Shown here piece by piece: positions 14,501 through 57,562 of a stretch of DNA of 64,000 nucleotides. Each line of letters starts with the position of its first letter. Position 1 is the first letter of the stretch. The translations under genes were made by a program, and so were the position numbers. The stretch comes from Antedon mediterranea (taxonomy: Eukaryota; Animalia; Echinodermata): the NCBI RefSeq assembly GCF_964355755.1, contig NC_092672.1, positions 7,812,001 to 7,876,000 of the forward strand, in the 5' to 3' direction. The notes beneath the pieces were generated by a model. The model had not been told where the DNA came from and made no database searches. It worked only from the letters and a program-made list of their open reading frames with translations.

Positions 14501-17500
14501 AAATACAATCAACTTTATTACTGCGGTTCCATCACCACCACCACGTGCCGCCCAATTCCCGTACATACATTTCCATTTCTCCCTAATTTCTTTAATCCAC
14601 ATAAATTAATTGTCCTTTATGGAATCCAGTATTGGTTTTGTTGTCTCTATTTCTGAATACCCCAATTAGGGGGACACTTCCGTTTTTGTTTAGTGTCCCA
14701 AAAAAGTCCCCGTCCGTGGATTCTACTGTATTCGAGAACCATCTGTGAGCACCCCTAGATGGTACGCGAGCGAAGCGAGCGTGCCATCTAGTTAATACAA
14801 TTTATTGGATTACGGTCGAAGCGGCCGCCAACCAAAGCGGCCGCTAGTTCAATAACGGTAATTTGTATGGAACGCCGTGTGCGCTTTGATTGTCGTTGTT
14901 TTGTCATTTTTGATTGTCATTGTTTCGATCGTCAGGTTTTCTTTTCCTCGGACGTAAATAACAACTTACATTATTAATATTATGTAATATATTCTCTTTT
15001 TTGACAGATTGAATGTGATACCTTCTTTTAAACGAAATGGCGAATCGATGATTACTTACTTTAACTGTTCTAAATGATATAGGCCTATATGTTTAATAAA
15101 GTCAATAAAAAACATTGTGGTGTTTTTATTGTATAATATATAATATGCCAATTATTAAGAATAATATATATATTTTTTCAGTAAAATATATCAAATCAAA
15201 ATATATATATTTGTTATTGTATATTAATATATTAGTAAAGTAACTACTGTAAGTAGTACGTGTTCGCAAACATAATTTAATTACAATAACATGATGACAT
15301 CAATCTATTTATTTAATATCCTAAATTGTTTTATACCTTCAGATATATAAATATTGATCAATTTAAAATTAGTTTTAAATACTAAAATAAGACGCAAGTG
15401 CCTGTACGGTACGGTAATTAATTACGTGAATTTCTGCTAATAACTCGACTGGCGGCCGGCCAGGAATAGTGCTGTAGAAGGTCGCGTTTTCGTCTTCACG
15501 TTGCTTCATTGAAAACACAAACAATGTATTACAATGGAATAACACTTAAATGTATAACACACCCTATTACTAATAATAAAAACCAAGATTCGATAGTACA
15601 GTGTAAACGAGATATAAAAATTCGGCAATACCGTACGTAACTTATTATTGCAATACTGTATAAAGATTCGATGTAAATGAGATATAAATATTCGGCAATA
15701 CCGTACGTAAATTAATGCAATACTGTAAAGATTCGATGTAAATTAATGAGATATAAATATTCGGCAATACCGTACGTAACTTATTATTGCAATACTGTAT
15801 AAAGATTCGATGTAAATGAGATATAAAGATTCGGCAATACCGTACGTAAATTATTAATGCAATACTGTAAAGATTCGATGTAAATGAGATATAAATATTC
15901 GGCAATACCGTACGTAAATTATTATTGCAATACTGTATAAAGATTCGATGTAAATGAGATATAAAGATTCGGCAATACCGTACATGAATTATTAATGCAA
16001 TACTGTATAAAGATTTGATGTAAATTAGATATAAATATTCGGCAATACCGTACGTAAATTATTATTGCAATACTGTATAAAGATTTGATGTAAATGAGAT
16101 ATAAAGTTTCGGCAATACCGTACGTAAATTATTAATGCAATACTGTAAAGATTCGATGTAAATGAGATATAAATATTCGGCAATACCGTACGTAAATTAT
16201 TATTGCAATACTGTATAAAGATTCGATGTAAATGAGATATAAAGATTCGGCAATACCGTACATGAATTATTAATGCAATACTGTATAAAGATTTGATGTA
16301 AATTAGATATAAATATTCGGCAATACCGTACGTAAATTATTATTGCAATACTGTATAAAGATTCGATGTAAATGAGATATAAAGATTCGGCAATACCGTA
16401 CATGAATTATTAATGCAATACTGTATAAAGATTTGATGTAAATTAGATATAAATATTCGGCAATACCGTACGTAAATTATTATTGCAATACTGTATAAAG
16501 ATTTGATGTAAATGAGATATAAAGATTCGGCAATACCGTACGTAAATTATTAATGCAGTACTGTAAAAAGATTCGATAGTATGTAAATGAGATATAAATA
16601 TTCGGCAATACCGTACGTAAATTATTAATGCAATACTGTATAAAGACTCGATAGTATGTAAATGAGATATAAAGATTCGGCAATACCTTAATAGTACGTA
16701 AATTATTATTGCAATACTGTAAAAAGATTCTATGAGATACAAGGATTCAGCAATACCGTACGTAAATTATTAATGCAATACTGTATAAGGATTCGATAGT
16801 AAATGAGATATAAATGTTCGGCAATACCGTACGTAAATTATTATATTGCAATACTGTAAAAAGATTCGATAGTATGTAAATGAGATATAAAGATTCGGCA
16901 ATACCGTACGTAAATTATTATTGCAATACTGTATGAAGATTCGATAGTATGTAAATGAGATATAAATATTCGCCAATACCGTACGTAAATTATTAATGCA
17001 ATACTGTTAGACAGGTTCCATTTCTCAAAAAACGGCCTAGAAAACGAATCAAGAAGCATTTTTGGGTAGAAGCTGGGATCCACTTGATTTAGGATATTTC
17101 GACCTCGCTGATTACGAATATGGCGGATCCCAAGCGAAATTCGGCCATCTAAGCCCTTAATTTGCATAATTAAAAATGGCGGCCATTTTTTATAATTACC
17201 CTATATCTCGAGAACCACTAGTCACAGATAATTAATATTGGTCTCAAAATGTTTTAAATATATGTTTTTATATTCACTTTAATGACACATTTTCTCAAAA
17301 AATGGATGCAAGTCTTATTTCTGACATTTTGACCTTTGACCTTGATTTATCGTATCTCAGTAACCAATAATCGGAGAGACACGAAATAGGGCTCAAATTG
17401 TTTAGAAACTATACATTCATATTTATTATAATGAAATGTTTTTACAAAAAATGGCCGATTCTACAACTATTGACCTTTGAACTATTAGTCAAATATAATA

Positions 17501-20500
17501 ATATAACTTTGAAAATTGTGGTCTTATGAATTTTTTTTTCTTTTTAAATTGTTTAAAACATGTGTGTTTCTATCCAGTCTAATGGCACATTTTGTACAAG
17601 AATGGCCGATAGCATGGTTATTGACCTTTAAACTATAGCATAGGCCTACTGTATACTAAATATAATATAATTGCATAACTATGAAATTATTTATACACAA
17701 TAATAATTAGTAAAATTATAAAATTCACTGCCATCAAATATTATGTGTTATGATTTATATAGATTTAAAAAAAAATTGAACACGCAAGTTACATTTGTTG
17801 AAATTTGAAATTACCTGCCATCAATATGATGGAGTATGATTATAGATTTTTTTAAATGTGAACATGTCAGCTACATTTGGAAATTACCTGCCATCAATAT
17901 GATGGATTATGATTATAGATTTAAAAAAGAATTTGAACACGTAAGCTACATTTGAAAATTACCTGCCATCAATATGATGGATTATGATTATAGATTTAAA
18001 AAAGAATTTGAACACATCAGCTACATTTGGAAATTTGGAAATTACCTGCCATCAATATGATGGATTATGATTGTATAGAGGCCTACCTGCCATCAATATG
18101 ATGGATTATGATTATAGATTTAAAAAAGAATTTGAACACGTACTAAGCTACATTTGAAAATTACCTGCCATCAATATGATGGATTATGATTGTATAGATT
18201 TAAAAGAAAATGTGAACACGTAAGCTACATTTGGAATGAACATGTTAAGGGCATTAGTTGAAGATCATTCATGCAAAGGTTTCCGTCATCTTTAGCGTTG
18301 TTACAGCGGCATAAAGCTGTACATGGTAGTTTTGACTTCTTTCACCTACATCTATTGGTTATGCATCGTGTCTTGCATCCACAATAAATCATCTCTAACG
18401 AAGCAGTAGGAATAGCTTCATTTTTCAGAAGCACTGGTTGAAGTTTACCATTAGATAGCTCCCACCCAAAATCTGTTGGTGATGGCAAATGCTGGATTGG
18501 CGATACAGCTTTTTTCCACCATACGAGTGCTTGGAAGTGTGCTCTTTTTATATGTTGGTGCACTGCATCGCTTGTTGGAGGTAATGCCTCTGGTTTTGTT
18601 TTTTTTTTAAGCCTAACTTCATTGGTACTTTTAACTTGACAAACACCGTAAACATAGCAAATGAATCTTTCCGATTTCATAATAACTTGGGCACTGATAG
18701 GTTTTCTCCCAGGTCTTTAATTAGTTCATAATTTTTTTTAATACTTCCCATGCCGATGCCTCTGAGTGACCACTTAGATATGAACAGGGAAGAGTTAAAT
18801 TACTGTATGTATGTATTAATGTAATTTAACTCTTCCCTGGATATGAGGTAGTATCGCATCCACTAATAGTGTGGAATTGGAATCAGTGCTTTTGCATAAC
18901 CCTCGGGCAAGGCTTGAAAAATGTCTTTTATAGATACTTTCTTTTTTTGGATGTCCCTGTCATCATCCATTTGGATACCATTCTTTGGTGGTGAGACACT
19001 AGAATCACTAGTACGTCTGTATCCCTAGAAGCAACTACAACTGTGTCGTATCGGACATTGGCAGCATGACAAGTCTCGTGTCCGATTCTTCATGATCTGC
19101 GACCAGAGACAACGTATTCGTGTAGACTTTTGATGATTTAACAACTGATTCTTTCATAAATCCACCAGCTGTGACAATTTCTTTGTCTATAGGAGCTTGA
19201 CGAATCAACTCCTCTGATAGAAATCGTGCCAGATCTGCTTTATTATCTTGTAATGCCAAAAAGTTTGACCAGCAATTTGGCAGCGGTATTTCACCACTTT
19301 CTATAATTCGACGAATTGGTCTCTGTGTTTTGGTTCATCTTTGTCTAGTGGTGCCCTTTATCGACAGTTTTAAGTTAGGCATGCCATGTTAAAAAAAACA
19401 AAACCAGAGGCATTACCTCCAACAAGCGATGCAGTGCACCAACATATAAAAAGAGCACACTTCCAAGCACTCGTCTGGAAAAAAGCTGTATCGCCAATCC
19501 AGCATTTGCCATCACCAACAGATTTTGGGTGGGAGCTATCTAATGGTAAACTTCAACCAGTGCTTATGAAAAATGAAGCTATTCCTACTGCTTCGTTAGA
19601 GATGATTTATTGTGGATGCAAGACACGATGCATAACCAATAGATGTAGGTGCAAGAAGTCAAAACTACCATGTACAGCTTTATGCCGCTGTAACAACGCT
19701 AAAGATGACGGAAACCTTTGCATGAATGATCTTAAACTGATGCCCTTAACATGTTCATTCCAAATGTAGCTTACGTGTTCACATTTTCTTTTAAATCTAT
19801 ACAATCATAATCCATCATATTGATGGCAGGTAATTTTCAAATGTAGCTTAGTACGTGTTCAAATTCTTTTTTAAATCTATAATCATAATCCATCATATTG
19901 ATGGCAGGTAGGCCTACTATACAATCATAATCCATCATATTGATGGCAGGTAATTTCCAAATTTCCAAATGTAGCTGATGTGTTCAAATTCTTTTTTAAA
20001 TCTATAATCATAATCCATATGTAGCTTACGTGTTCAAATTCTTTTTTAAATCTATAATCATAATCCATCATATTGATGGCAGGTAATTTCCAAATGTAGC
20101 TGACATGTTCACATTTAAAAAAATCTATAACCATACTCCATCATATTGATGGCAGGTAATTTCAAATTTCAAATTTCAACAAATGTAACTTGCGTGTTCA
20201 AATTTTTTTTAAATCTATATAAATCATAACACATAATATTTGATGGCAGTGAACTTTATAATTGTACTAATTATTATTGTGTATAAATAATTTCATAGTT
20301 ATGCAATTATATTATATTTAGTATACAGTAGGCCTATGCTATAGTTTAAAGGTCAATAGCCATACTATCGGCCATTCTTGTACAAAATGTGCCATTAGAC
20401 TGGATAGAAACACACATGTTTTAAACAATTTAAAAAGAAAAAAAAATTCATAAGACCACAATTTTCAAAGTTATATTATTATATTTGACTAATAGTTCAA

Positions 20501-23500
20501 AGGTCAATAGTTGTAGAATCGGCCATTTTTTGTAAAAACATTTCATTATAATAAATATGAATGCATAGTTTCTGAACAATTTGAGCCCTATTTCGTGTCT
20601 CTCCGATTATTGGTTACTGAGATACGATAAATCAAGGTCAAAGGTCAAAATGTCAGAAATAAGACTTGCATCCATTTTTTGGGAAAATGTGTCATTAAAG
20701 TGAATATAAAAACATATATTTAAAACATTTTGAGACCAAAATTAATTATCTGTGACTAGTGGTTCTCGAGATATAGGGTAATTATAAAAAATGGCCGCCA
20801 TTTTTAATTATGCAAATTAAGGGCTTAGATGACCAAATTTCGCTTGGGATCCGCCATATTCGTAATCAGCGAGGTCGAAATATCCTAAATCAAGTGGATC
20901 CCAGCTTCTACCCAAAAATGCTTCTTACACCATATTTCAGAGGAAATAGAACTTGTCTATGTATAAAGATTCGATAGGAGAGTGCTCAAGAAACGTCGGG
21001 TCAAGAGGATAAAATAAACAAATAAATAAATAGTACGTAATAAATGAGACATAGAGGTTCAATAGTATGTAGATTATGATGCAAACGTAAATTATTAATG
21101 ATTCGATAATATATAATGTAAATATATTTAGTTAGTTATTAATATTAAAATACAAATAAAATATACATTAATTTATCCGCAGGCAAACTTAATTATTATA
21201 GAAATATAAAGATTCGATAGTACATGATTTGGCTTATATTTATTGGTTTGACCATACACACAGCTGTAACTCAACTCGCCATAGGCCATGGCGTTGACAA
21301 CGACAATCAAAGATTAAAGCGCACATGGCGTTCCATACAAATGACGATATTAAACTGGCGGCCGCTTTGGTTGGCGGCCGCTTCGACCATACTCCCTACC
21401 TCCAATTTATTAACCCGCTGTGAAATTCATCGTCGCCATCGTCGTCGTCGTCATCGTCATCGTCATCGTCATTATTATTATGTTATCCTATCATGCCTTA
21501 TAAAACTAGAGGGTACTCCGAGAGTACAAACCTCCGCCTACTGTAAAATTCCCCTATATAAAATTCCCCCTGAATATTTTTTTTTTACATTTTTTTTATT
21601 AGTTCTAAGTGTAAATATGTTAACTGCACACTACAAAGTTGTGGATGACAGTGTGGTGTAATGGTTATGTATCCAGCCTCTCACAGTTGAGATCGCTGGT
21701 TCAAGTCCCACTGAGGTTTTTTTTTTGTTATTATTTTTTTATTTCTTTTTTGTTTTTGTTTTTTGTGGACCATGATCTTTGATCCTGACCCTTCAAAATT
21801 TAACCACAATTATATGATGTGTCATTGATCATTGTGGCTAAGTTTGGTGAGAATCGAATAAAAACTGTGGTCTCTAGGCAGTAAAATAGTTGTTTGTTAG
21901 TTGTGACCTTGACCTATGACCTTTTCCCCTCAAATTCGAACTCGTCCGAGCTTTTGGGGAATAGATCATTGTTGCCAAATTTGGTGAGAATCGGATAAAA
22001 GCTGTGGCCTCCAGGCTGTTCACAGACACACACACAAACACACAAACACACACACAAACATACAGGGGTGAAAACATAACCTCCTTGGCGGAGGTAATAA
22101 AATTGAGATGTATAAAACAGACATTTGCTAAATTATAGTAATAATAATAAATAAACAGTACATTTTATAAAACAGACACGAGGTGAAACTAAATGTATAA
22201 TAATGTTATCCGTAGAACCAATAATATTAAGAATTTAGAAATCACTCTTTTTATCTACGTATCACACACGTTGGAACATTATTTCTAATTGATAGTGGAC
22301 TTTTATAACTAGATAAACCAACTGTTTTTTGTGTTACAGAATCCTAATACCGATGATAAGGACTCATCAAATAATACTCCGCAGCATGCCGCAACTTCTG
22401 GTGAAAATCCAGGTCAGATTTAAATTTCAAAACTTAAATTGCTAGCATAAAATTAGTGTCAATAAAAATGAATGTGTGGATTGCCTCAGATCACCTGTTC
22501 GCTTCAGTAGCTCTGCCCCTGAATGCAAGAAACAAACGATCGAAAGAAAAACAAGACCATATACATGGCTGCAGTCGCGTGTTCAAGATAGTGTTTACCG
22601 ACCGACATGGTGAGCTGTAGAGTCGCGTTGTACGCACGCGACTAAAAATATATGATTTAGCAATTTTCGAAAAATGTTTTTGCTGTGCAACATCATACCA
22701 ATTTCCACAGTAATAATAGCATAATGAAAAGAGAAAACCTTTTTAATGAGTGTTTTCTTTTATCTATTTTATAGGTAAAACGACCCAAGTATCAGATGTC
22801 ATCAACATTCTCAACAGTGAAATTAAAGAACTGCAAAAACATGTTGCTGATCTCAAAGAACAAGCCAGCATGGTCAAAGATCAATACAAAACGAATGAAG
22901 CAGTTGGTTCAACAATTCCTAAAGTTCTCAGGAAAGCTAATTTAAATGAAATAGCTGATAAAGTCGAAAGTAGGCAAAAAATTAAATGCATTTTAGATTA
23001 AAATATCTTTTTTTTTAAATCTAGGCCTATATATTATATATATGTGTTAATGTATTCAATTTACTTACTTTACTTTCTTTCATTAAGCATAGTCTCGATA
23101 GATAGAGTAAAATAGAGTACTTAAACCGAACTGGGATTTAAAATTAACAATGTCAATTCAAAACAGGAATATGAAGAATTTTATTTATTTGTAACATTAT
23201 AATTGTTATTTTTCATCAAATAAAGAGTTCCTTTTTATATAGATGCAACCAATAAATTAATGGATTTGGCAAAGAAATTGGGCACTGAATGGAAACAAGT
23301 TGGAGTATATCTTGGCTTCAAGCAAGAAGATTTCTATCGGTTTGAAAATGATAGTGGTAACAACACAGCATGGGCAATTTTCAGCATGCTGGACCGATGG
23401 TATAAGAATGCAGAAGTTCATGAGAGGTATGAAAAACTTACTAAAGCGCTCAAAGAATCCGATAGGGAGGATTTAGCAGATGAAGTTCAAAGTTGGCTAG

Positions 23501-23505
23501 CATAA
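8552..23505 (+). CDS. Gene B1: TIR (TIR_2-like) - linker - coiled coil - Death domain protein, ~318 aa
   Basis: Exons 8552-8557 (MS), 8963-9006 (ERGYIMLCYSWKDE), 9456-9646 (…GYRVWIDR…VIGCLSKAYQESENCLR), 9760-9944 (EGNMIG…IPIIAEKGY…IYIDFS…), 22340-22412, 22775-22969, 23243-23505 (LMDLAKKLGTEWKQVGVYLGF…FSMLDRW…LTKALKESDREDLADEV, Death domain). All introns are GT-AG, and the total of 957 nt is in frame. Confidence 0.85.
11262..12066. mobile_element. Helentron-associated (DINE/HINE-like) non-autonomous element
   Basis: (GACA/GACC)n microsatellite blocks and a terminal hairpin agtcgc-ttccac-gcgact next to an A run. Short copies occur at ~22550-22650, ~38347-38450 and, reversed, ~54590-54712. Confidence 0.55.
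12385..14791 (+). mobile_element. Non-autonomous Helitron
   Basis: Starts A|TC(TATATATAAAT), ends with a GC hairpin (acgcgagcgaagcgagcgt) and CTAG|T. Has an internal duplication of ~12660-12963 at ~13421-13794. Its 5' kb is repeated at 51755-52790. Confidence 0.8.
15585..17007. repeat. Tandem minisatellite, ~60-64-bp unit
   Basis: Over 20 copies of aaagattcgatgtaaatgagatataaatattcggcaataccgtacgtaaattattattgcaatactgtat. The unit resumes at 20960, after the Academ insertion. Confidence 0.95.
18229..19370 (-). pseudogene. Disrupted Academ-type transposase C-terminus (XPG-like nuclease plus Cys-rich finger)
   Basis: Minus-strand motifs SIK..TR, FL...NK.DLARFL, DHEESDTR, RDTDVLVI, FHTISGCDTTSY, LPPT..AVHQHIKRAHFQ...W and CGCK..C....C.C.K..L.CT..C.C, broken by stops and frameshifts. 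Confidence 0.75.
19386..19769 (+). pseudogene. Inverted second copy of the transposase Cys-rich C-terminus
   Basis: 127-aa ORF nearly identical to the minus-strand fragment at 18229-18605. Confidence 0.75.
21503..22100 (+). mobile_element. Interspersed repeat (HINE-like) with TGACCT motifs, CA-rich tract and embedded tRNA-like segment
   Basis: Terminal hairpin acctccttggcggaggt, (CA)n-rich tract ~22021-22060, and A/B boxes TGGTGTAATGG / GGTTCAAGTCC at ~21653-21710. Confidence 0.5.
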
Positions 23506-35839: not shown

Positions 35840-38800
35840 ATGTCTGTGAGTTTTTGACAAATCTCTTTTTTCACAATTTTGTATTATTTCAGTAATACCA
35901 GTATTTTCAAAACTCTAACTACATATTATATAAAGCAAACAAAAACTACATACATTATAACTATAGTAACCATGCCAATATGTGCATAAATTGTTAAATT
36001 TAGTGAATATAAAGTATATACGTATGCATACATTTTTCACATATTTGTATTGGGCTTTTTTTTAAACTATTGCTACATTATAGAATATTTTAAAATAACA
36101 TTATAATCATTATAACATCAACCTTCCATCATTATAATAGAACCGAGGATTAGTTAACTATTCTCGATCACTACAACTACATAACAAACTGGCAGTACTG
36201 ATGAATATAATTTCTTTCAGGGAAGAGGATACATTATGCTCTGCTATAGTTGGAAGGACGAAAGGTAAGTTAAAATAATATATATTTTATATTATATATC
36301 CCATGTAAACACGTGAACGTGATTGGTTCAAAAGGCATCACATGGCTACCGTTTCGTGGATCAAAAATGTTATAGCGGACTGATCAGTGGGTTATAAATG
36401 TAATATAACAGATATTGATTTATATATATGTGTAGTGTAACAGTTAATATCCTGCTTGGGACCTATGCTTTTTATTCGAGACTAATTATTAAATATTATT
36501 TCCTCGGAGGATTTCAAATGTTATAATTACCTCTAAGCAATTAATATCTGTATAATATAATGACTATACGAATAACAATGATTTTATAATAGGATCTATA
36601 TCGCATATTTAGAAATACATATTTTTTTTATATAAAATAACGCAATTTAGTAATACATACTAAACATACATACATTTTTAATAATTTAGAAATACGTGTT
36701 TTTTTTTTGTTTTTTTTAAATAACACATTTAAGTAATACATACAAATAATGAATTTTTAATAATTTCAATAATAAAATTGTTAACGTTTATTAGAATCGT
36801 TGAAAAGATATGGGAACGTTTAGAACAAGCCGGTTACAGAGTGTGGATTGACCGAAGTGGTACAGATGGATTGAAACGAAAACATAAGTCTATTTACATT
36901 GAAATGGCAAAGGCTGTCAAAAATGCGACAGTCGTAATTGGATGTTTATCTAAAGCATACCAGGAAAGCGAAAATTGTTTACGTGGTAAATGTTTGTATT
37001 GCTTTGAATAATTAAATATTTAAAACGATTCGTTGTTTTTGCATTATTTTTGTTTAATCTATCCAGAACTAACATGGAAATTACATTATGTTTATAATTC
37101 AGAGGGCAATATGATCGGAAATCGTAACAAAGATTGTTTTCCTATAATTGCGGAGAAGGGTTATAAACGAAACGAGTGGGTTGAGACAATATTTGGTGGA
37201 CAAATTTACATTGACTTTTCAAATGCAGAGGACTTTGAAAATAGTTTCAAGATTTTGCTTTTGAGGCTAAAAGATTACACAGATTTGGTAAATTATAATT
37301 GCATTATCTATTTATTGTTAATGTTCTTCCTCTTTTGGCCAGTGTTCCAAGGTATAGAATAAGTTTCAATAATAACTAAAATCATATAAATATAGTGTTA
37401 CAAGCATGCTCGTGAAAAAATGAAAATTGAGAATACATCTTTGTTCCAACATTTTTCATTCATTTCTTAGTTGAAATAAATAACATTGGTACCTTATGCG
37501 ATCCTAATGCACTCCAAATTCCACGAAAATTGATCGAGTTAACTCTGTAGGCCTACTGCGTCATCTTTTCTTAAATATTAATTTCTCTGCTTAGGCCTAC
37601 ATAATTTTATTATGTTTGGTATCATAAATAGTATTTCCTACAAGCAGGGCCATGGCCACTAATTAACTAATCAAATGAACACATAAAGTTCGAAATATAG
37701 AATCACTTTACATAAACAGTAAAATATGTGAAAAGGAGCCAAAAAATAGCTTTCTGCTAATCGAAGTTTGACTCCTGTCACAAAAATAAATTATAAGTTA
37801 AATTTTGATCCAACTACAATAATTCAATAAGAAAAAAACTACAACTATATAAAAGAAATAAAGTAAACATGTGCTAATGTTTTTGTAAAAGTGAACATTA
37901 ACTTCATTTATGAATTTAAATTTTATAGGGTAAATTACTCCAAAGTTGAGCTCCATTAAAAAAAAAGAAGTACGAACTTTCGGAATTGCAAAATTATTTC
38001 TATTACTAAATCTGGACTAGCATTTTTACTCTATTTTCACTCTTTATCTACGTATCACACACGTTGAAACATTTTTTTTTTAATTGATAGTGGACTTTTA
38101 TAACTAGATAAACCAACTGTTTTTTGTGTTACAGAATCCTAATACCAATGATAAGGACTCATCAGATAATACTTCGCAGCATGCCGCAACTTCTGGTGAA
38201 AATCCAGGTCAGATTTAAATTTCAAAACTTAAATTGCTAGCATAAAATTAGTGTCAATAAAAATGAATGTGTGGATTGCCTCAGATCACCTGTTCGCTTC
38301 AGTAGCTCTGCCCCTGAATGCAGGAAACAAACGATCGAAAGAAAAACAAGACCATATATGCAGTCGCGTGTTCAAGATAGTGTTTACCGACCAACCGACC
38401 GACCGACATGGTGAGCTGTAGAGTCGCGTTGTACGCACGCGACTAAAAATATATGATTTAGCAATTTTTGAAAAATGTTTTTGCTGTGCATGTCAGCAAA
38501 ACCAACATCATACCAATTTCCACAGTAACAATAGCATAATGAAAAGAGAAAACCTTTTTAATGAGTGTTTTCTTTTATCTATTTTATAGGTAAAACGACC
38601 CAAGTATCAGATGTCATCAACATTCTCAACAGTGAAATTAAAGAACTGCAAAAACATGTTGCTGATCTCAAAGAACAAGCCAGCATGGTCAAAGATCAAT
38701 ACAAGACGAATGAAGCAGTTGGTTCAACAATTCCTAAAGTTCTCAGGAAAGCTAATCTAAATGAAATAGCTGATAAAGTCGAAAGTAGGCAAAAAATTAA

Positions 38801-39319
38801 ATGCATTTTAGATTAAAATATCTTTTTTTTTAATCTAGGCCTATATATTATATAGATGTGTTAATGTATTCAATTTACTTACTTTACTTTCTTTCGTTAA
38901 GCATAGTCTCGATAGATAGAGTAAAATAGAGTACTTAAACCGAACTGGGATTTAAAATTAACAATCTCAATTCAAAACAGGAATATGAAGAATTTTATTT
39001 ATTTGTAACATTATAATTGTTATTTTTCATCAAATAAAGAGTTCCTTTTTATATAGATGCAACCAATAAATTAATGGATTTGGCAAAGAAATTGGGCACT
39101 GAATGGAAACAAGTTGGAGTATATCTTGGCTTCAAGCAAGAAGATTTCTATCGGTTTGAAAATGATAGTGGTAACAACACAGCATGGGCAATTTTCAGCA
39201 TGCTGGACCGATGGTATAAGAATGCAGAAATTCATGAGAGGTATGAAAAACTTACTAAAGCGCTCAAAGAATCCGATAGGAAGGATTTAGCAGATGAAGT
39301 TCAAAGTTGGCTAGCATAA
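35840..39319 (+). CDS. Gene B2: TIR - linker - coiled coil - Death domain protein (paralog or allele of B1), ~318 aa
   Basis: Exons 35840-35845, 36221-36264, 36795-36985, 37103-37287, 38135-38207, 38590-38784 and 39057-39319; all GT-AG, in frame, with the same sizes as in B1. Confidence 0.88.
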
Positions 39320-43052: not shown

Positions 43053-46038
43053 TAAAATACAATTGTAAATGTCGCCCTCTATTTTTTTTTGTTTACATAG
43101 CGACCATCATTAGAATCATTTTAATTGATAATATTTTTAATTTAATAATTATTTTCAGAAGTCTCAGAAGTCATATAATGTTTTATTATACTTCTTTTTA
43201 TTTTCTAGACCCGCTATATATTTTTTACAAATATTTAAAGTATTTTAAAATAATACTAAAGCAGTGAGTGATTGTGTGAGCATGACCTTTTGACCTAAAA
43301 ACCTTTCATTCACACCAAAACACTGGGGTGTCCCCGCAGTTCACTCTCCGGAGAATGTTCAGCTGTTCAACCCCGCAGTTTTAAACTCCGGAGTTGCTTG
43401 ATTTTACCTTTCACATCAAAACAACTCCGGAGTGTTTTGCTTTGGTGGTGTGAATGAAAGGGGTATTATTATTACTAAATGAAGAATTTGTATCCCCATT
43501 ATAAGTCTAAAACGTGCTAATCTGGGAAACAACTGATTTGTGTTATATGGGGTATATACATCATACATACAGGGAGAACGGTGAATAATTACATTTCCAT
43601 TCTAAACTATTTGCTTATCAACATGTTGTGTAAAACAATTTATAGATGTAAATTTTTGTTTGTTTACATTGCTTGCATTTTCTTGAATAATAATAATAAC
43701 TGAATAATTCGGATTAGGACCTTTACGGACCCACGACAGCCACGTCACCGGCTACCATGAACGACATGGGATTAAATGGACCAGTTCACCGGTGTAACTC
43801 CTACTCTCTTGAGAAAATGCACCGAGTCCTTTTAAAGTGCACACGTTTTTTGTAATAGTGATAATATTGTTTTAAGCTAAATTCACACGGAAGATGGTGT
43901 ATACACAGAACATATAATATACAGAATTGAACGGTGAACGTTCTGTGAAACGGAATAAGTGTGAATGTAGATTCTTAGGACGTACAGTAATAAAGTGGCT
44001 TTTCTATTCTTATTTATTTAGTTATGTTTGTTTATATTTTGTTGTTTTATGTAAACTGGTTGACACATATAACCATTATGTAAAACTGTAAACAATGAAA
44101 AAAGATAAAGTAAACACCACAAAACGTAATTTGTGTTTATTAATCGTTAATCATGATGACTGACAATAACATAAATACTAAAATGTAATCATATTTCCGA
44201 TCGATGATTAGCGGTTTATACGCCCTCAAAATATGTTGTATCATTGAACTTGATTCCCTTATCTAAAATGGTATGGGCCAATAGAAAACAGGAGTTTATG
44301 AATACAATTATTTTTACATAATAATTATCATAACATTTTTAGATTATTTTTATTAATATAATGTATGTTTGTTATTATCAATAATATGGTTCTTCCATTT
44401 TATCGTTTTCAAAGAATGAACAGGTCAAATCATGTTCTAGGTGCTATGTTGCACGTATAGTTTATGACTATAACCATGCGGATGATATGTTTACTTTCTC
44501 TGTGGTCTAATGCCCGGATCCTATAGATCAATTTTTCATCCCGGATTTTCCCTTTTGATATTCGTATTTTTCAGACTTACATGATGTTTGTCTGTAAGGC
44601 CTGCATATCGCTTGACACTGTTACGTTCGTTTTATTATAACATAAGGAGGAATTATTTTAACTAAACTAATTCTTCGATGCTCACAGTAGGCCTATGTCT
44701 AAATAAAAATTATAATTCAATATTTATAATAATTCATTCCACGATTTAAACTTCTCGGAAAGTATAGGGCAAACATTGTTTGCAATTATATTGATCTATC
44801 TCGACACGGTTACTAAATTTGTACAATCGGTAATTTCCGCTCCATTCAAATGGATCAACAGTCAAATGATGAGAAATAAAATTATCCATTCGGATCAGTA
44901 GAGGGAGTGTTATGGGGAACAGCGGCAGGAAAGTGGCTCCTCGGTAAGTATTCAGTAATTTAATTTTTGGCCTAAACATTTTCCAGTTCCAGTTTTACGT
45001 ATATAATGTACCAAATGGTTGTTTGAAATGGTTATCAACTATCGAGTTTAAGTAGGCTGTAGTTATCTTTATCGAAGAATAATTATCACATTCCTCCACT
45101 GGGTATGGATTCGGTCAAGTGGATGAAGAATAATATGCAAGGATAAAAGGAATTCATGGATTTCACGGTTGATGTGACAATAGCCTATTCGTAACGTAGG
45201 TTGGGCTGCAGATTTGTTGCGAAGTATTTAGGGAAAGGCACCGGTGGATGTCGGCAATTAAGTAAGTTAGATGTTGTGTAACAGGGTGAATAGTCACACT
45301 TTTTTACTTCGTTAAAATATATTATACTGTTGATTAATGTTGATTTCCATTGAGCAGTCTGCGAAACGGGCATTTTTTAATTAGTGTAGCCTTAATAACA
45401 TTGCATTGGTTAAACGTTTTGTGATAGGCCTATATTTTTCCTTATGAAATATTTTACCGTATTCTATCCACTTAACGTGCCAAGCCCTTTCCAGATGTTT
45501 AGGAAATATTATCTAGAATTAACAGCCATCTTAATGTAGACCTTTTCCTTCCTGTAGTTATCACTATACATTTGAGATCATTAATGGTATATCTCAGCGA
45601 AGTCATCATTTGTTTATTATTTGTCATATTTTTTTCTCTTTAAAAACAAAAACGTAACACACGTAATCAATTTTTTATGAAGATTATTTTGTCAATATGA
45701 TAGACTACAAATTCGCTTGCTTTAATTCATATAAAACTATATTTTGTATTTCTGTGGTTCTTTCTTTTCGAATAGCTTCACTAACGAGATTTAATAACGT
45801 CGAACAATGTATTCCTTTGATAGGTATTATACATTGTAAACATTGTATTATTATCATGTCTAGGAATAAACTTTCAATTTGAAAGTCATCGGGAAATATA
45901 ATTCACGTGACGTCCACCTGACATGCATAAAGTAGTAGATACTATGATTGTTATGCTTAAAAGTAACTTGGTTTTAAATAAATTTTAATTTACAGATTTT
46001 GAAGTATTGAAGAAACTGTCTAAGTAAAGATATCAACC

Positions 46039-49000
46039 ATGACGGTAAGTAATTTATTTTATTATAAACATCTATTGGAGAGGAAAGTATCGAGAACAAT
46101 AGAATAAATTTAGTACCGTATACACACCAAAGTAAAACAATAAATAAGCCATACTACTACCATAGCTGGTCAATTTAAAGTTTCTTTATACACCGGCTCC
46201 ACATTTCGAAAACTTTGAATATAAAAATAAAAAACATAATTTATTTATGTCATTGCTATGTGCCTGTTTGCACTTTGTTCAATGCATTCGTTAAATATTT
46301 TTTTGTTTACTCCAATTGCCGTTGAATACGAATTTATGAATTATGAACTATATCTGTATCGATTTCACTGTTCAAACTAGGAATTATTCACTGTACCAAA
46401 TTATCATAATATAAATAAAGACTTATACCGTAATTCTATTATATCATTACTCTTACAGTATAATATGTATTGACATGAATTTATGTAATGTAATTAATGT
46501 GAATTGTTTTTAGGAAAGAGGATACATTATGCTCAGCTACAATTGGGCTCACAAAGTGTAAGTTTAACAAATAATAAAACAAGTAATAAGATATTTAGGA
46601 CTAACCATGCACCCGGATTTCAGTATTATACGCGTGATGACGCGCAAACGTCGTGTTTTATTCATTCTTGTATATCTAGTCACCATTGATAAAATTACAG
46701 ACTATAGAACAGTCAGGGTAAAATATATATAAATATGATTGGAGGAAAAGAGAAGGCAACATTATGACGTATTTCACAAAATAGTGACTAAATGCCGTCA
46801 AGAATTGCAACGTCATCGTATTACGTAAGCCTAAAAATGATATTAGTGTATAATCCATCAGTCATGTTTAGAGAACAATAGTTTTAAGAAAGAATCAATT
46901 ATTTTCTCTTCCTTAGAATCGTTAGAAATATAAGATACCGTCTATGGCAAGAAGGTTACAGAGTGTGGATAGATATTGATGAGAAGGATGGAATGAAAGA
47001 CTTTATTTACAGTGATATGCCTAATGCTGTCAAACATGCCACAGTTGTCATATCCTGTTTGTCTAAGAAATACGAAGACAGCCCTAATTGTAAAACTGGT
47101 AGGTCTGTTTTAATTGATTTTATATAAGCTTATCTAGGTTATCGACAGCGATTTATCTTAATATTCCTAACACATCTTGGCATACATGGCGTGTCATAGG
47201 CTAGCCCCAGTCTCTAAATAAATAATAGTCTTTTTATGTTGTTAGCATTCCACAAGTCATTTCGTGTCTACAAGCTACAGTTATTATACGTATGAAACGC
47301 CGCGTGTGTCTTTTTTAGCATTATTATGTCTATCTACACTATTTAGCGAGTGCCATACTTGACTTTGAAACTACAAACAAACATCAAAATATATCTATAT
47401 TGTATAACTTAAAGACAACAATCAATTATTAGAGAAACAATCATTAGAGACTTGTGGCAGGTATAATATCAAACAGACGATTTCGAGTTCGAATCTCCTT
47501 TATGTCATTTAACAAGAAAGACAATAATGCAAAAAATGCAGAGTCACCGTTATTATTAGGACCATTTTCCACTGGAAAACTGCAATGTCTTGAAACAAGG
47601 TGCAGAGAATAAAATTGATGGTGAGCTATATTTAATTTTTTTTTCTTTATTTTAGAGGGTGGTTGCATTGGACATTATAATAAGAAACGCATTCCACTAC
47701 TGATGGAGAAGGATTATAAACTTGACGACTGGGTTTTGGGAATATTTGTTGGACGAATTTGGATTGACTTTTCAAATGTAGAACGCTTTGAAGCCAATTT
47801 TCAGGAACTGCTTGCAAGACTACAGAACTACCCAACTTTGGTAAGTTAAACGATTCTACACGATTTATTGTATTATGCCCATTACAACAGACGGAACTGA
47901 AGATTGAGGACTCCTTACTAACCCTTAGCCTATAGAAAACAAACCCATTCTTTGTCAACCCTAATCATACAATAATAGATCTCACTTTTTGTTATACCAT
48001 AAGAAAATCATTTTTGTTACAGAATCCAGAGAAGAACAACCGAATACCAGCTAATCTACCGCTACCTGAACCACTTTCTTCGAACACAAATCCAAGTATG
48101 TTAAAGATTTATGTAGAAATTATCTTAACAATTAAGCTAAATAATTTAATATGCTATTTCAGAATACTATATTTACTTTTAAATTACAAGTAGTCTTGGA
48201 ATAAGCTTGGTGATAACCTACGTATATCATATGACTCCCGGGAGGCAAATGGTAAGTGTAATTTGAGTGGGGCTCATTGTTGTAGGCTTCGTCAATTCAA
48301 ATAAGCTTTTGGACACATTAGAATAAAAAGCATTGCCTGTCGATTAGAAATGGCAGAGGGTGAATTTATTTATTTACTCATATGAAATCTAAAAAACATC
48401 TACCATATAGCAAATTTAACTTAGCTGTATAAACACTGAAAAACTACAGTATATAAGCATAGGGAATTTAGGTTTTTATATCCAATTCAATTGTCTGTTC
48501 GCCATTTCCCTCTATTGTGGATGATAAAGGCAAGATACTTCTCATAAAATTCACAAATAATCTAAAAAAAAATTTACTTTTGTGTTTAGTTCCACCATCT
48601 ACATCTTCGGATCCTCCAGATACAGCGCCCCCAGTGGACACAACGGATAATCCACGTTCTTTAGGATCAGGTAAGCAAATCTTTCCTTAATCAGAAATGA
48701 CTTTTTTTTTAAACTATAGTTTACTGATAACATTTTAAAAGCTAACTGATCTATTTTACAGAAATATCTGGTAATCTTGAAGAGAGGACAACTAGTAGGC
48801 CTACAAGACCAAGTTACAGTAGGATTATATCAGAACATTAATTTCTTTACATAGGCCTATAATTATCATAGTAGGATCCTACACATTTCTACAGATAATA
48901 AACAAGAGATATATCATTGCATGTAAAGCAGTATAATTTATAGGCCTTGGGACACATCTCCTCTCAGACCTAATCTATACGTATTTCAAAATACATCAAC

Positions 49001-49666
49001 CACTAGTAACTGTGCTACTTTACCAATTAATATTATTATTATTATTACTGTATTTATTTTACATGTTAATTGTTATGAAAGAAACCATTATATAAATATT
49101 TTACTTTTTATATAGAATTGACTGAACGTGAATATGCAAGTCTGCTCGTAAAAGTTTCACAACGTTGGAAAAAGTTTGGCAACGTCCATATGTTGAAGGT
49201 ACTACTATGTGACTTTAACAAAATCGGAATAACTGAAATTCAAAAGAATAATGACGAATTTGAATTGTTTAAGTTACTCCGGGGTAGTGGTAAACTGAGT
49301 CCATCAAACATAGATGTTATCGTCGAGGCTGCGTTCTTATGCGGGGTAGGGGCTATTGAGGAGGTCATCCTGGATAAGATACCGGAATATCAGTACCCTA
49401 CGTCTAATAAAGAAATAAATACAATCACAAAATATCGCCAAAACGTGATCGAATTCGGAATTATTGTAAATCAAAGTAACTTGGAAGAAATTGTAAAATT
49501 GTCTAGTCTTCCTTGTAAGAAGGAGGCAGATAAGTGGAGTCTGATATTTGAACTAGAACTTCATAATGTACTGACTCCAAAGAATAAGGAGTCATTCATT
49601 GAAATGCTAGGAGATCTAGAAAATGACACGACGAAAGAAGTCGATGCATTGAACACTTACAAATGA
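46039..49666 (+). CDS. Gene C: TIR (TIR_2-like) - Pro/Ser/Thr linker - tandem DED-like protein, ~375-395 aa
   Basis: Exons 46039-46044 (MT), 46514-46557 (ERGYIMLSYNWAHK), 46917-47098 (…GYRVWIDID…VISCLSKKYEDSPNCKT), 47656-47840 (EGG…RIPLLMEKDY…IWIDFS), 48023-48095, 48590-48670, a probable micro-exon from 48762 (donor at 48770, 48794 or 48818, all phase 1), and 49116-49666 (tDED). Intron positions in the TIR are identical to those in gene B. Confidence 0.85.
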
Positions 49667-50159
49667 ACCAAGCATGTAACTCTATTGGTGTATATTGTAC
49701 AGTAGATTATTGTATGCATATTATTTTTCGTAGGCCTACTCTATTGTTCATACATTATTATTTTGTATAGATTATTATCAAGTGATTAATACCAAGTAAA
49801 TTAAAATACTAGTAATTTTTAAAAACTTTAAACAATGTCAACTAGCCATCATTTTTAAATAATCTGGAAGTTGTTTTTTGTATTGTATTTCTGTGTTTTA
49901 TCTTTATTGTATTTTATATACACAAGTAGGCCTAATGTTATTAAATACTTTAATAATAACTTATATGCATTTAATAAGCACTATTGCTAACTTGATACTT
50001 TTACTAATCTGCCATTATTCATTAGCTTATAGTAATGTAAATAATATTGTAGGTAGGTTCTAAACGTTTACAAAGTATTGATTTAAGCATAATTAAAAAT
50101 AAATTATCATGTATTATAATATTGTAGATTATACACGTTTCACAAATATTAATGCAAGT

Positions 50160-55523: not shown

Positions 55524-57562
55524 AATTGGACTTCCAAACATTTTTGATGACGGTATCTCTATGGTGTGACAAACATGGGAATTTAAACAAGATGAAATTG
55601 GCGTTTCGTGAGTTTAATACAATCTTTAGAAGAAGCATAACACTTAGAGCTATTCAGAATGCGAAAAAATGCGTTTGATCTGATTAGAATGCTTATCGCT
55701 AATGGAATGATCCATCGAACAAATATACGTATACTTATTGAAGTTTTTAAAGTATGTGGAAGGGGTGGTGTTGAAAGCGTGATTAAGCCAGAATGGAATT
55801 TACCCAAATTCGAAGATGTTCCAATCACAAACATTTCGGATCACCGAAGAAAACTGATACAATTCGGTAACACAGTCACCAATGAAAACATGAGAGTACT
55901 TGGACAATTGTACAACATTAGAGAAAGAGATCCGTATTCTTTAACTCTACAATTAGATATAATGGGATATCTTACAGGAGACAAGATGAATGAATTCATT
56001 GAGAAACTTAAAGATTTGAAGATGTTTAATGAAGTTGATGCATTGAGTAAATATTTGACATATTTGACATTTCTATTCTATATCAAGAGCTTATCAACTT
56101 TTTTTTAAATTAATTTAAGCAGAAAGTGTGTGCCCTTTTGTAATGATTATTGCAGTATCAAGCCTATTTAGTTACTTTAAATACGTGTCTAATATTAATT
56201 AAATAATATTATAAAGTTATGAATTAATTAAATATTAGTACATGCCATTATTCACAAAATTTCACTAGATACCTAGTACTAGTCTACTTTAGTAGTAGGC
56301 CTATTAGGATTTTACTCTACTAGAATACGTGTTTGTGCATGTTGTATTATTAAACATGCACGTCGTTCGCAAGTTTGACAAAGATAAGTTGCCTTGTGGA
56401 AGCAATGCAATGGATGTTACACGTTACCGTAAACTGTTTGAAGAAACAGGTATTCATTTCATTGTCTGGATCTGTAGCACCAATTAGTTATAGACATGGG
56501 TTTAACACTGAAAGGTTAAAATTAAAATTCTTCTGAATTTAAAACTCATATCAAATAAAATACAATTTTTAAGAAAATATGAACATTTTTTTCGAAGACA
56601 TTTGATTTACCGTATAATTGACTTTTGATATGGAAATTTGAATCAGCGTTACTAAAGTATTATTTTGTTCATACTTCATACAAATCTTAAGATAACATTA
56701 TCATTATTACTTCTATGACAGAAGGCCACGGCGCTACTGGTGTGGCACATGGTGAGGCTACAGGTACACCAAACGAACCAACATCAATGACAGGTTAGGA
56801 GATTGTATGTTTGTGTTTTTTTGTGTGTTAAACTTAAATGTTTGATGATATAAAACACATTAATCTATAAGATTATGAAAGTTTCGTAATACAGTACAAA
56901 TTTCCAAATGAAAATTGTACTAGGAAGGTGTTTAAACATGATTAAGCACGTTACAGAAACATAATGTATACATACTGTATCATAGGCAGATAACACTGGT
57001 AAATCGTCTTATTATATTATTAGAATTAACAGAGGACGAATTCAATGAACTGTTAACGGATGTATCTCTTTGGTGGAAGAAACATGGAAACATTAACATG
57101 CTGAGAGTGTTGCTTAGCGAGTTTACACGTCATCATAACAGCATCGCTCTACACACATTAGAGGAAGCAAAGACACCTTATGATCTGATTCGTTTACTTA
57201 ATGCTTCAGGACTTCTCAAACCGACAGACATAGATATCCTCGTTGAAGCCACTAACTTATGCGGACTTCAGGGAGTTCGGGAAGCGATTGTGAAATCACC
57301 AAACTTCGACGTTCCATACAAAAACTTCTCAGACCATCGAAGAAAGTTAATAGCGTTGGGTCAACAAATGAATACAGACAACAAGCTAATTATAGGCCAA
57401 CTTAAGGACATTAGTGTCAACGATGACACAGATCCGTTTTGGTTAATCTTAAAATTGGAAATGAAAGGCACACTTGCAGAGGGAGAGAAGATTGAAAAAT
57501 TCATTGAACAAATGACACGTTATGGTATGACTAAAGAAGTGGAGGCATTGACAAAACTTTGA
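55524..57562 (+). CDS. Gene D: two tandem-DED-like exons (four DEDs) joined by a linker exon; +1 frameshift in the first; 5' exon not identified
   Basis: Exon 55524-56046 (LDFQTFLMTVSLWCDKHGNLNKMK…NAFDLIRMLIANGMI…SDHRRKLIQFG…NEVDAL, 523 nt, with an extra A in the A6 run at 55664-55669), linker 56722-56793, and terminal exon 57024-57562 (LTEDEFNELLTDVSLWWKKHGNINMLRV…SDHRRKLIALG…KEVEAL). All junctions are phase 1. Confidence 0.72.

Follow-up and report, generated by a model that had tools for sequence, protein, structure and literature searches.

A feather-star gene encoding a TIR domain joined to a predicted tandem DED module

Gene structure and genomic neighborhood

The window analyzed here, that is, the whole 64,000-nucleotide stretch of Antedon mediterranea DNA, includes a gene with eight coding exons (positions 46039-49666) encoding a 392-aa protein that ends in a single stop (Table 1). 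The translation is identical to the Antedon mediterranea database protein P0001 at 392 of the 392 positions. One 1750-nt spliced contig from run X1, which is called RNA by guess, covers positions 44914-49844 and unites all eight coding exons; eight introns are removed in this contig (one in the 5' UTR and seven in the CDS), with GT..AG ends throughout, and the 3' UTR extends to at least position 49844. This single contig, from one study, constitutes the transcript evidence; for the three DNA-type runs that were compared, none of these joints occurs among the matches listed (15/20 joint rows). The TIR-tandem DED gene is a real, spliced feather-star gene, and the concern that the TIR exons and the exon at 49116 might come from separate transcripts is answered by the contig that joins them. 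Two other splicing candidates were discarded: a donor of exon 7 at 48794, given that the X1 contig sets this donor at 48818, and an exon at about 48190-48252, which is absent from the contig and in the wrong phase.

The preliminary description of this locus, made from the sequence, proposed an in-frame TIR domain, a P/S/T-rich linker and two DEDs with no caspase domain, a model that is borne out by the spliced contig, the identity to P0001, the Pfam matches and the AF2 prediction. It also noted that the ORF track misses the TIR part almost entirely, which is the case because the TIR coding sequence is split across exons of 44, 182, and 185 nt, with an intron interrupting even the Glu78 codon.

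The window is a tandem cluster that has recently undergone duplications, and it contains repeats as well as a copy of the module with a frameshift. Two TIR-Death paralogs lie upstream of the gene. The nearer one shares the first TIR exons and their phases; a linker and a second middle exon come next, and the last exon, in phase 1, encodes a Death domain. Its TIR is identical to that of the TIR-tandem DED protein in 76 of the 139 positions. Four diagnostic bases of the farther paralog are present in an X1 contig.

Table 1 Features of the TIR-tandem DED gene and of its paralogs in the window
Feature	Positions	Strand	Basis or relationship
Tandem-DED terminal exon, paralogous	3869..4419	+	30% identical; last exon of database model P0051
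Second TIR-Death paralog	8552..23505	+	310/318 identical to the 35840..39319 paralog
TIR-Death paralog, 318 aa, open frame	35840..39319	+	Sequence comparison
5' UTR exon	44914..45261	+	Start of X1 contig; joint 45261>45996, GT..AG
Exon with start codon at 46039 (Met-Thr)	45996..46044 (coding 46039-46044)	+	X1 contig, P0001
TIR exon, residues 3-17	46514..46557	+	X1 contig, P0001, Pfam
TIR exon, residues 18-77; final base is first base of Glu78 codon	46917..47098	+	X1 contig, P0001
TIR exon, residues 78-139; completes Glu78 codon	47656..47840	+	X1 contig, P0001, alignments
Linker exon 1, P/S/T-rich	48023..48095	+	X1 contig, P0001
Linker exon 2, P/S/T-rich, phase 1-1	48590..48670	+	X1 contig, P0001
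Linker exon 3, phase 1-1	48762..48818	+	Joint 48818>49116 in X1 contig; P0001
Terminal phase-1 exon, whole predicted tandem DED (residues 211-392) and stop	49116..49666	+	X1 contig, AF2, fold search
Tandem-DED terminal exon, paralogous	57024..57562	+	36% identical; last exon of database model P0011

The TIR domain and the tandem-DED module

Residues 7-130 match the Pfam family TIR_2 (PF13676) with 63.2 bits (cut-off 28; E 4e-17), and no Pfam match to PF01582 or to the Death domain was detected in the 392-aa protein at E<=1. Among solved structures, 26 sequences are matched by the TIR at E<=1, led by Cat1, RPP1, Roq1, and RPS4; the best matches are Cat1 (E 2e-06) and the plant TIR NADases (9e-06 to 9e-04), followed by AbTIR and then TIR-1/SARM1, and none of the 26 is a MyD88, MAL, or vertebrate TLR. 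In these alignments (of sequences only), Glu78 coincides with the Glu of the WCxxE motif of Cat1, the plant TIR NADases, AbTIR, and TIR-1/SARM1, the Trp of which is replaced by Asn in this TIR. Glu78 is invariant in all five aligned crinoid TIR-DED proteins (33-53% identity), together with S10, Y11, W34, D36, Y69, and C75, among others, and its equivalent is kept in both TIR-Death neighbors. More than 70% of TIRs have a Glu in the catalytic position, and its presence is no guide to activity (PMC7075850); Glu78 by itself is no proof of activity. For animal TIRs outside the TLRs, one of them from an echinoderm, Glu-dependent production of cADPR has been reported, with only 12 of the 61 Glu-bearing animal TIRs active as isolated domains (Hurieva et al., bioRxiv 10.64898/2026.04.20.719644). 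A sequence search with the TIR region produced only 2 proteins among 14 candidates, too few for a picture of TIR-DED proteins outside crinoids.

The combination of a TIR with a death-fold domain, which is the layout of MyD88, would suit a non-enzymatic adaptor, such that the TIR would bind other TIRs (of the TLR type, the MyD88 type, or of its own TIR-Death paralogs) and the DED would signal to a caspase, a kinase or Rel. MyD88 clusters rank first in the ESM Atlas feature search (0.84, graded by the tool as a lead only), followed by leads to EAD7/EAD8/EAD2-TIR clusters (0.80-0.83), and the adjoining TIR-Death paralogs could co-assemble with this protein through their near-identical TIRs, turning Death-domain signals into DED signals. 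Against such a role stand the TIR_2 class and the solved matches listed above, as well as the Glu, invariant here but seldom present in MyD88 and TIRAP (under 10%; PMC7075850). We consider an adaptor of this kind a possible but doubtful solution.

The TIR is followed by a linker (residues 140-210) in which P, S, and T account for 46% of the residues, and by the module encoded in the last exon. The Pfam DED profile yields 14.1 bits on this exon, below the gathering score of 35.9, vs 37.5 bits on the close relative P0002. When modeled by AF2 without an alignment, the exon gave a pLDDT of 39.6, and the model built on a 53-row alignment (pLDDT 94.0, pTM 0.89) was used instead. In a VIA fold search of this model against 48,161 chains, the best matches were the tandem DEDs of caspase-8, vFLIP, and cFLIP, over the full length: caspase-8 (4zbw) with Z 17.2, rmsd 2.8, and 167 aligned residues, MC159 with Z 13.8, and cFLIP-S with Z 12.6, whereas single DEDs reached Z of at most 8.6. 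The top rows of a Foldseek search with the module were likewise all caspase-8, cFLIP, or vFLIP (best E 6e-03, TM up to 0.72), with no match at E<=0.001. The last exon is thus predicted to encode two packed DED folds of the caspase-8/cFLIP type, the arrangement that the preliminary description had read from the sequence and that the model reproduces. A profile comparison of DED1 with DED2 was uninformative (probability 5.8%), and a prediction of two copies of the module as a complex, run without a supplied alignment, gave a score of 0.00 and counts neither for nor against pairing. Peptidase_C14, the caspase domain, had no Pfam match in the 392-aa protein.

The RxDL motif in helix 6 is a feature of tandem DEDs; it is absent in this module, and of the 154 family modules, only 4 contain the pattern at any position. 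In DED1, the hydrophobic pair is kept as V238/L239, aligned with the FL of cFLIP. In DED2, K337/L338 stand where caspase-8 has F122/L123, so that the FL motif is missing; the register was obtained by counting without gaps from the YR start along the DED2 sequence of cFLIP. Caspase-8 requires the DED2 FL motif for chain formation, and when this motif is lost, recruitment is still allowed but chain growth stops (PMC3477315). This combination of a kept DED1 pair and a lost DED2 pair would suit a regulator resembling cFLIP-S or vFLIP that enters assemblies through its DED1 surface but is unable to extend them, thereby capping or diverting chains of caspases or NLRs, the TIR being a secondary output; cFLIP and vFLIP are also the best matches of the module profile among PDB sequences (E 0.005-0.015). 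Nevertheless, we deem a regulator of this type quite improbable, given that the DED2 Phe is missing across the family (in 150 of the 154 modules, those of NLRs and of the caspase included, with F in only 4), which does not set this protein apart, and that a TIR whose Glu is invariant and conserved between two crinoid genera would be superfluous in a pure decoy.

The preliminary description had further suggested, as one of two alternatives, that a TIR of the TLR/MyD88 type is wired directly to caspase-8 filaments, a shortcut that would bypass MyD88 and FADD. The TIR_2 class, the enzymes among the nearest structures, and K337/L338 all argue against this connection, and only the Atlas lead leans toward it.

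A crinoid family of tandem-DED modules

The module belongs to a family with 114 matches, in which it is fused to NLR, Roc-COR, kinase, RIG-I, Rel, deubiquitinase, and caspase domains; the sensors among these include 20 NACHT, 17 Roc/COR, and 1 RIG-I protein. Most family members fall below the Pfam DED cut-off, and one of the matches (P0092), a repetitive fish protein with 42 matched residues, was treated as spurious. In the tree, the module groups in a 27-member clade of mostly C-terminal crinoid modules (19 of the 27; support 99/95), which includes Roc-COR-DED proteins and a kinase-DED protein (P0012) and contains no NLR or caspase modules. The AU test rejected grouping with either module of the caspase-8-like protein P0045 (p-AU 9e-80 and 4e-57), the Anneissia protein that is the sole crinoid caspase in the tree set. 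Descent from a caspase-8 prodomain is rejected by this test, with P0045 as the only caspase sampled. Hence the idea of a caspase-8-like design in which a TIR replaces the protease as effector holds as an analogy and fails as a line of descent, considering also the C-terminal position of the module. The kinase-DED relative and the crinoid caspase and Rel proteins that carry the module would offer partners to an adaptor; the rejected grouping with caspase modules and the missing DED2 motif count against it.

The closest module is the C-terminal one of the four-DED protein P0002 (67% identity), the N-terminal module of which groups among the sensor-type N-terminal modules. The same TIR-DED architecture is encoded in Anneissia japonica (39% identity, with 99% of the length aligned), where there is also a second such gene (P0041), and the inverse order, DED-TIR, is found in P0094 (Antedon) and P0040 (Anneissia), with modules from other clades. 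A single clade for all TIR-linked modules was rejected (AU test, p-AU 8e-08), and therefore, the TIR/tandem-DED pairing was assembled more than once. Compared with the 67% identity to P0002, the module is only 40% identical to its Anneissia counterpart, which suggests exon replacement, judging from the sequences; the fusion likely arose through shuffling of the phase-1 terminal exon. Feather stars have a habit of joining this module to many of their immune proteins, and the gene is one of the results.

Conceivably, the shuffling of exons in a gene cluster with rapid turnover produced the fusion as a neutral by-product, transcribed without a selected function, as the duplications, the frameshifted copy and the repeats in the window, along with the disparity between the two module identities, might indicate. 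The intact frame, the spliced contig, the occurrence of the same architecture in another crinoid genus and the repeated independent pairing speak against this origin, as do the variants listed for the DED exon, three of four of which are silent (a small sample), making neutrality the least probable of the explanations considered here.

The order of the domains bears on yet another possibility, namely, that sensing or triggering is the task of the TIR, which would self-assemble or respond to a ligand or the NAD+ state, and that the tandem DED provides the output by nucleating DED assemblies downstream. The C-terminal position that the module shares with the Roc-COR-DED and kinase-DED proteins of the clade is compatible with an output role, and the TIRs of Thoeris act as sensors (bioRxiv 10.64898/2026.04.20.719644). 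However, no ligand-binding repeat domain was found by Pfam, and TIRs of the same class precede the module in some fusions and follow it in others, an arrangement more in keeping with a tethered enzyme than with a fixed polarity; a sensor TIR thus appears very unlikely.

Possible function and relationship to known systems

The explanation that we tentatively favor is that the protein is an immune effector enzyme, with a TIR that would cleave NAD+ once the tandem DED clusters the protein. SARM1 and the TIRs of plant TNLs are activated by clustering, and here, too, clustering would bring the TIRs together and thereby switch them on. The tandem DED would bind similar modules on partner DED proteins, the closest candidate being the C-terminal module of P0002, and P0002 itself could be an ASC-like bridge leading from a DED-tipped sensor to the TIR effector. 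A bridge has to be assumed because the 27-member clade includes no NLR or caspase module, and nothing therefore points to a sensor recruiting the protein directly. The clustering surface would have to stand in for the DED2 FL motif of caspase-8, which is absent here, and one candidate is the Tyr that the family conserves at the 339 column. The output would be either NAD+ loss or a cADPR-type signal, the latter being the most likely one by the pattern in the animal TIRs tested. The interchangeable death-fold exons attached to one TIR would fit a constant effector combined with a variable connector, a logic described for death-like adaptors (PMC8195603).

If this enzyme reading is correct, the protein would be a DED-controlled animal TIR enzyme, linking DED assemblies to NAD+ chemistry rather than to proteolysis. 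A more far-reaching version, under which crinoid immunity has been rebuilt on a tandem-DED plug in sensor-type and effector-type forms, comprising NLRs/RIG-I, P0002-type bridges, and a DED-assembled TIR NADase as the executor, seems unlikely; it would amount to an inflammasome-like platform in an animal, with execution by NAD+ consumption or cADPR synthesis in place of protein cleavage.

In those parts of the literature that were covered by the search, no description was found of a tandem DED on a TIR or of the crinoid module family, and on that coverage the wider family looks undescribed. The architecture alone is a modest surprise because marine invertebrates are well known for TIR fusions with death folds and for lineage-specific grafting of domains. 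Many animal TIRs have recently proved to be enzymes. Assays of isolated domains, by their authors' own account, leave open how full-length TIRs are switched on (bioRxiv 10.64898/2026.04.20.719644); a protein with a TIR and a death fold, located beside paralogs that carry the same TIR on a Death domain, provides a small natural set for testing this switch.

With caspase-8, caspase-10, cFLIP, and vFLIP, the protein shares the predicted packing of two DEDs and the DED1 hydrophobic pair; it differs in the C-terminal position of the module (caspase-8 and -10 have an N-terminal tandem DED followed by the caspase), the absence of a caspase or pseudo-caspase, the low identity (16%), the K/L pair in DED2, and the separation from crinoid caspase modules. 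MyD88 and the invertebrate Death-TIR, CARD-TIR, and TIR-Death proteins likewise combine a TIR, a linker, and a death fold; here, the order is opposite to that of MyD88 (N-terminal Death, C-terminal PF01582 TIR), the death fold is a tandem DED, the TIR is of the TIR_2 class, and the Glu that MyD88 mostly lacks is present. The TIR partners in amphioxus include Death and CARD, and a tandem DED is listed for no TIR in 12 genomes (PMC2575513, supplement 4).

SARM1/TIR-1, the plant TNL NADases (RPP1, Roq1, RPS4), and Cat1 have the nearest solved TIRs, with the catalytic-position Glu aligned, and the shared logic that we propose is activation by clustering through a fused domain. In this putative enzyme, by contrast, the TIR begins at about residue 4, there is no ARM, SAM, NB-ARC, or CARF domain, and Asn replaces the Trp before CxxE. 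The bacterial EAD/bDLD-TIR effectors, in which a small helical adaptor is common to a STAND sensor and a TIR effector, as in the pair of bDLD3-STAND and bDLD3-TIR (Kaur et al. 2021, PMC8195603), resemble the proposed arrangement without an evident link in sequence; the protein described here is of animal origin, is encoded by an intron-split gene, and carries a tandem DED, with the sensor and effector modules in different clades. DEDs have also been grafted on NLRs in amphioxus, sea urchin, and Nematostella, and on RLRs in lophotrochozoans and Patiria; these DED-NACHT and DED-RLR proteins carry single DEDs on sensors, as opposed to the tandem DED on a TIR in the feather star.

Structure and transcription of the TIR-DED gene

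In this AT-rich animal DNA, joining canonical splice sites yields an open frame that encodes a TIR domain, a linker and two DEDs (TIR-DED gene); the exon model was fixed by alignment of four public runs. Record 2 (1750 nt) of X1, a public sequencing run that we took, by guess, to be RNA, spans 44914-49844 and skips eight GT..AG introns, and the translation of the coding exons (392 aa) is identical to the database protein P0001, which its source assigns to Antedon mediterranea. The TIR and DED exons therefore belong to one transcript, as judged from one assembled contig of a single study along with the database gene model. This agrees with the intact in-frame arrangement proposed in the preliminary description and answers the concern that the TIR exons and the exon at 49116 come from separate transcripts. 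Three DNA-type runs from a different sample showed no such splice joint within the rows listed (15 of 20). Three DNA-type runs of one sample contain a backward joint, leading from 47108 to 46913 and adding 12 extra letters, at roughly half depth; variants at positions 47050 and 47053 reach the same level. A haplotype in which the 182-nt TIR exon is tandemly duplicated, with 26 nt between the copies, is likely. Because an intron would probably not fit into 26 nt, use of the two copies would be mutually exclusive. X1 carries the variant form of this exon in its transcript, with 10 differences, including I62V and S63A.

Features of the window
Feature	Position	Strand	Details
Short-exon string	360-4419		tandem-DED exon last; database model P0051 without other domain
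Tandem-DED last exon	starts 3869		phase 1
TIR-linker-Death gene 1	8552-23505		open frame 318 aa; Death Pfam E 5e-13; 12-kb intron filled with repeats
TIR-linker-Death gene 2	35840-39319		open frame 318 aa; Death Pfam E 2e-13
TIR-DED gene	46039-49666	+	eight coding exons; tandem-DED last exon 49116-49666
LINE-like fragment	50486-51460	-	325-codon open frame; zf-RVT match; directly downstream of TIR-DED gene
Two tandem-DED exons	55524-57562		short linker exon 56721-56793; first tandem-DED exon frameshifted between about 55625 and 55660; database model P0011 begins past the break
Tandem-DED last exon	starts 57024		phase 1
Tandem repeat of short unit	58880-61200		very strong GC skew

The two TIR-linker-Death neighbors are identical to each other at 310 of 318 residues and share 55% TIR identity with the TIR-DED gene, and their first five exons match those of the latter in size or phase (6, 44, 191 versus 182, 185, and 73 nt); the terminal exon of both, in phase 1, encodes the Death domain. 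Four diagnostic bases of gene 1 are present in an X1 contig which, from length arithmetic, we infer to join its TIR and Death exons. In a 7-row TIR tree, the TIR of the TIR-DED gene groups as sister with that of the TIR-Death paralog (98/97), and a tandem DED is present in each of the five outer rows, which, with sampling as thin as seven rows, suggests that a Death exon replaced the DED exon within the Antedon line. The 12 bases preceding the acceptors of the Death exon (39045-39056) and the tandem-DED exon (49104-49115) are identical, a match that could be coincidental or could be left over from an exon swap. The 5' end of P0051 may lie outside the window.

Fold, family and origin of the tandem-DED module

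Pfam scanning of the TIR-DED protein detected TIR_2 at residues 7-130 (63.2 bits, cut-off 28), left the DED below threshold (14.1 versus 35.9 bits) and found no caspase domain; the absence of a caspase and the P/S/T-rich linker (46% P/S/T) had both been described from the sequence. Modeled from the single sequence, the last exon gave a poor fold; the model built on a 53-row alignment (three exons from the window; P0004, an Anneissia isoform; and, selected from 114 matches, 49 proteins that are short or have a single module) reached pLDDT 94.0 and pTM 0.89. Compared with 48,161 chains, its top nine matches were all tandem DEDs, from caspase-8, vFLIP or cFLIP (Z from 17.2 down to 12.2, 158-172 residues aligned), followed by single DEDs (Z ≤8.6), so the prediction bears out a DED pair. 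Foldseek produced the same rank order, with no rows at E ≤0.001; by sequence, the best matches to the profile of the alignment were cFLIP, vFLIP, and caspase-8, at weak significance (E 0.005-0.06). That the protein is a FLIP-like cap appears unlikely.

The full-library search with the last exon retrieved 114 cluster representatives. Pfam scans of all 114 placed the module on 20 NACHT, 17 Roc/COR, and 5 TIR_2 proteins and on one protein each with a kinase, RIG-I helicase, Rel, ubiquitin hydrolase, or caspase domain; many of the remainder are the module alone or module repeats. Crinoid proteins with the same module include P0059 (RIG-I helicase), P0079 (Rel), P0072 (ubiquitin hydrolase), and P0012 (kinase); the caspase-8-like P0045 of Anneissia has two modules (four DEDs) and the active-site motif QACQR. 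Organism names, checked for 23 matches, comprised 22 from Antedon or Anneissia and one fish, a repetitive protein judged spurious; because the other 91 lie outside this check, "crinoid family" is an extrapolation. An Atlas structure search found a DED cluster in which Echinodermata is the commonest phylum. Anneissia japonica LOC117114152 has the same TIR-DED architecture (39% identity across 99% of the length); a neutral product is, in our estimate, the least probable reading of the gene. The three annotated isoforms of this locus (P0003, P0004, P0005) have a common linker and differ in the TIR exons and the whole tandem-DED part, a pattern explained either by alternative splicing of cassettes or by tandem genes merged into one model.

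In a FastTree phylogeny of 154 modules, the TIR-DED module falls within a 27-member clade (0.955), in which 19 modules are C-terminal; the clade includes TIR, kinase, and Roc-COR fusions and lacks NLR and caspase modules. The sister of the TIR-DED module, with 67% identity, is the C-terminal one of P0002, a protein with four DEDs; the N-terminal module of P0002 lies among N-terminal sensor-type modules, in a poorly resolved region. IQ-TREE analysis of 36 modules hand-chosen from the 154 retained the clade (99/95) and rejected both the trees forcing the TIR-DED module together with either P0045 module and the tree forcing seven TIR-linked or sister modules into one group; these tests used groups named after quick trees had been seen, one caspase, and the simpler LG+G4 model. 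With this one caspase sampled, the TIR-DED protein is therefore not a caspase-8 with an exchanged effector, and the earlier suggestion of a caspase-8-like design with TIR in place of the protease is supported as an analogy and not as descent. Rejection of the seven-module group, together with the DED-TIR domain order of P0094 (Antedon) and P0040 (Anneissia), indicates that the pairing arose more than once, and in both orders.

Assembly, possible enzymatic activity and proposed mechanism

The position of the cFLIP FL motif in DED1 is V238/L239, retaining the hydrophobic pair. Caspase-8 chains and filaments require the DED2 FL motif, according to the available part of PMC3477315; the equivalent in the TIR-DED protein is K337/L338, and Phe occupies this position in 4 of the 154 modules, so that, judged by these residues, canonical caspase-8-type chain growth seems unlikely for this protein and the whole family. 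Some form of assembly is inferred from the presence of the large family on oligomerizing sensors. An arrangement with the TIR as trigger and the DED as output appears highly unlikely.

Across five crinoid TIR-DED proteins (the others 33-53% identical to P0001), S10, Y11, W34, D36, Y69, C75, and E78 are invariant. The crinoid TIR profile matched 26 solved sequences at E ≤1. Cat1 ranked first (2e-06), ahead of the plant TIR NADases, Roq1 and RPS4; AbTIR and TIR-1/SARM1 came next, and a Hydra Toll-receptor-related TIR was last (0.86); none of the 26 was MyD88, MAL or a vertebrate TLR. E78 aligns with the Glu of the WCxxE motif in Cat1, plant NADases and other solved enzymes, whereas the Trp position is Asn in P0001. 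The Glu by itself is weak evidence of activity because, per the available part of PMC7075850, more than 70% of TIRs have it; the same source describes it as rare in MyD88 and TIRAP. In the accessible part of Hurieva et al. (bioRxiv 10.64898/2026.04.20.719644), the isolated domain showed activity for 12 of 61 animal TIRs that carry the Glu; most of the active ones produced cADPR, and one came from an echinoderm. An Atlas feature search put MyD88 clusters on top (0.84), with clusters of bacterial EAD-TIR scoring 0.80-0.83, all of them under the bar of 0.9. A non-enzymatic adaptor, the foremost rival reading, seems rather doubtful. We tentatively favor a TIR enzyme that would be activated by clustering of the tandem DEDs; its recruitment would most plausibly depend on a module of the same kind, for example the C-terminal one of P0002.

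Comparison with known fusions

No TIR-DED fusion was found in the literature searched, the Gerdol and Poole-Weis TIR surveys and most subscription literature being outside its coverage. This holds for the accessible text of PMC2575513, PMC5094078, PMC8195603, PMC6321704, PMC8998645, PMC8662601, PMC11797021, and bioRxiv 10.64898/2026.09.21.753143; "DED" is absent from the supplements of PMC7075850, PMC5094078, and PMC8662601. Across 12 genomes, the tabulated partners of TIR (PMC2575513 supplement 4) include Death and CARD and no DED. Already known, from the available portions of PMC2575513, PMC8998645, and PMC8662601, are fusions of TIR with death-fold domains and the grafting of DED onto NLRs and RLRs.
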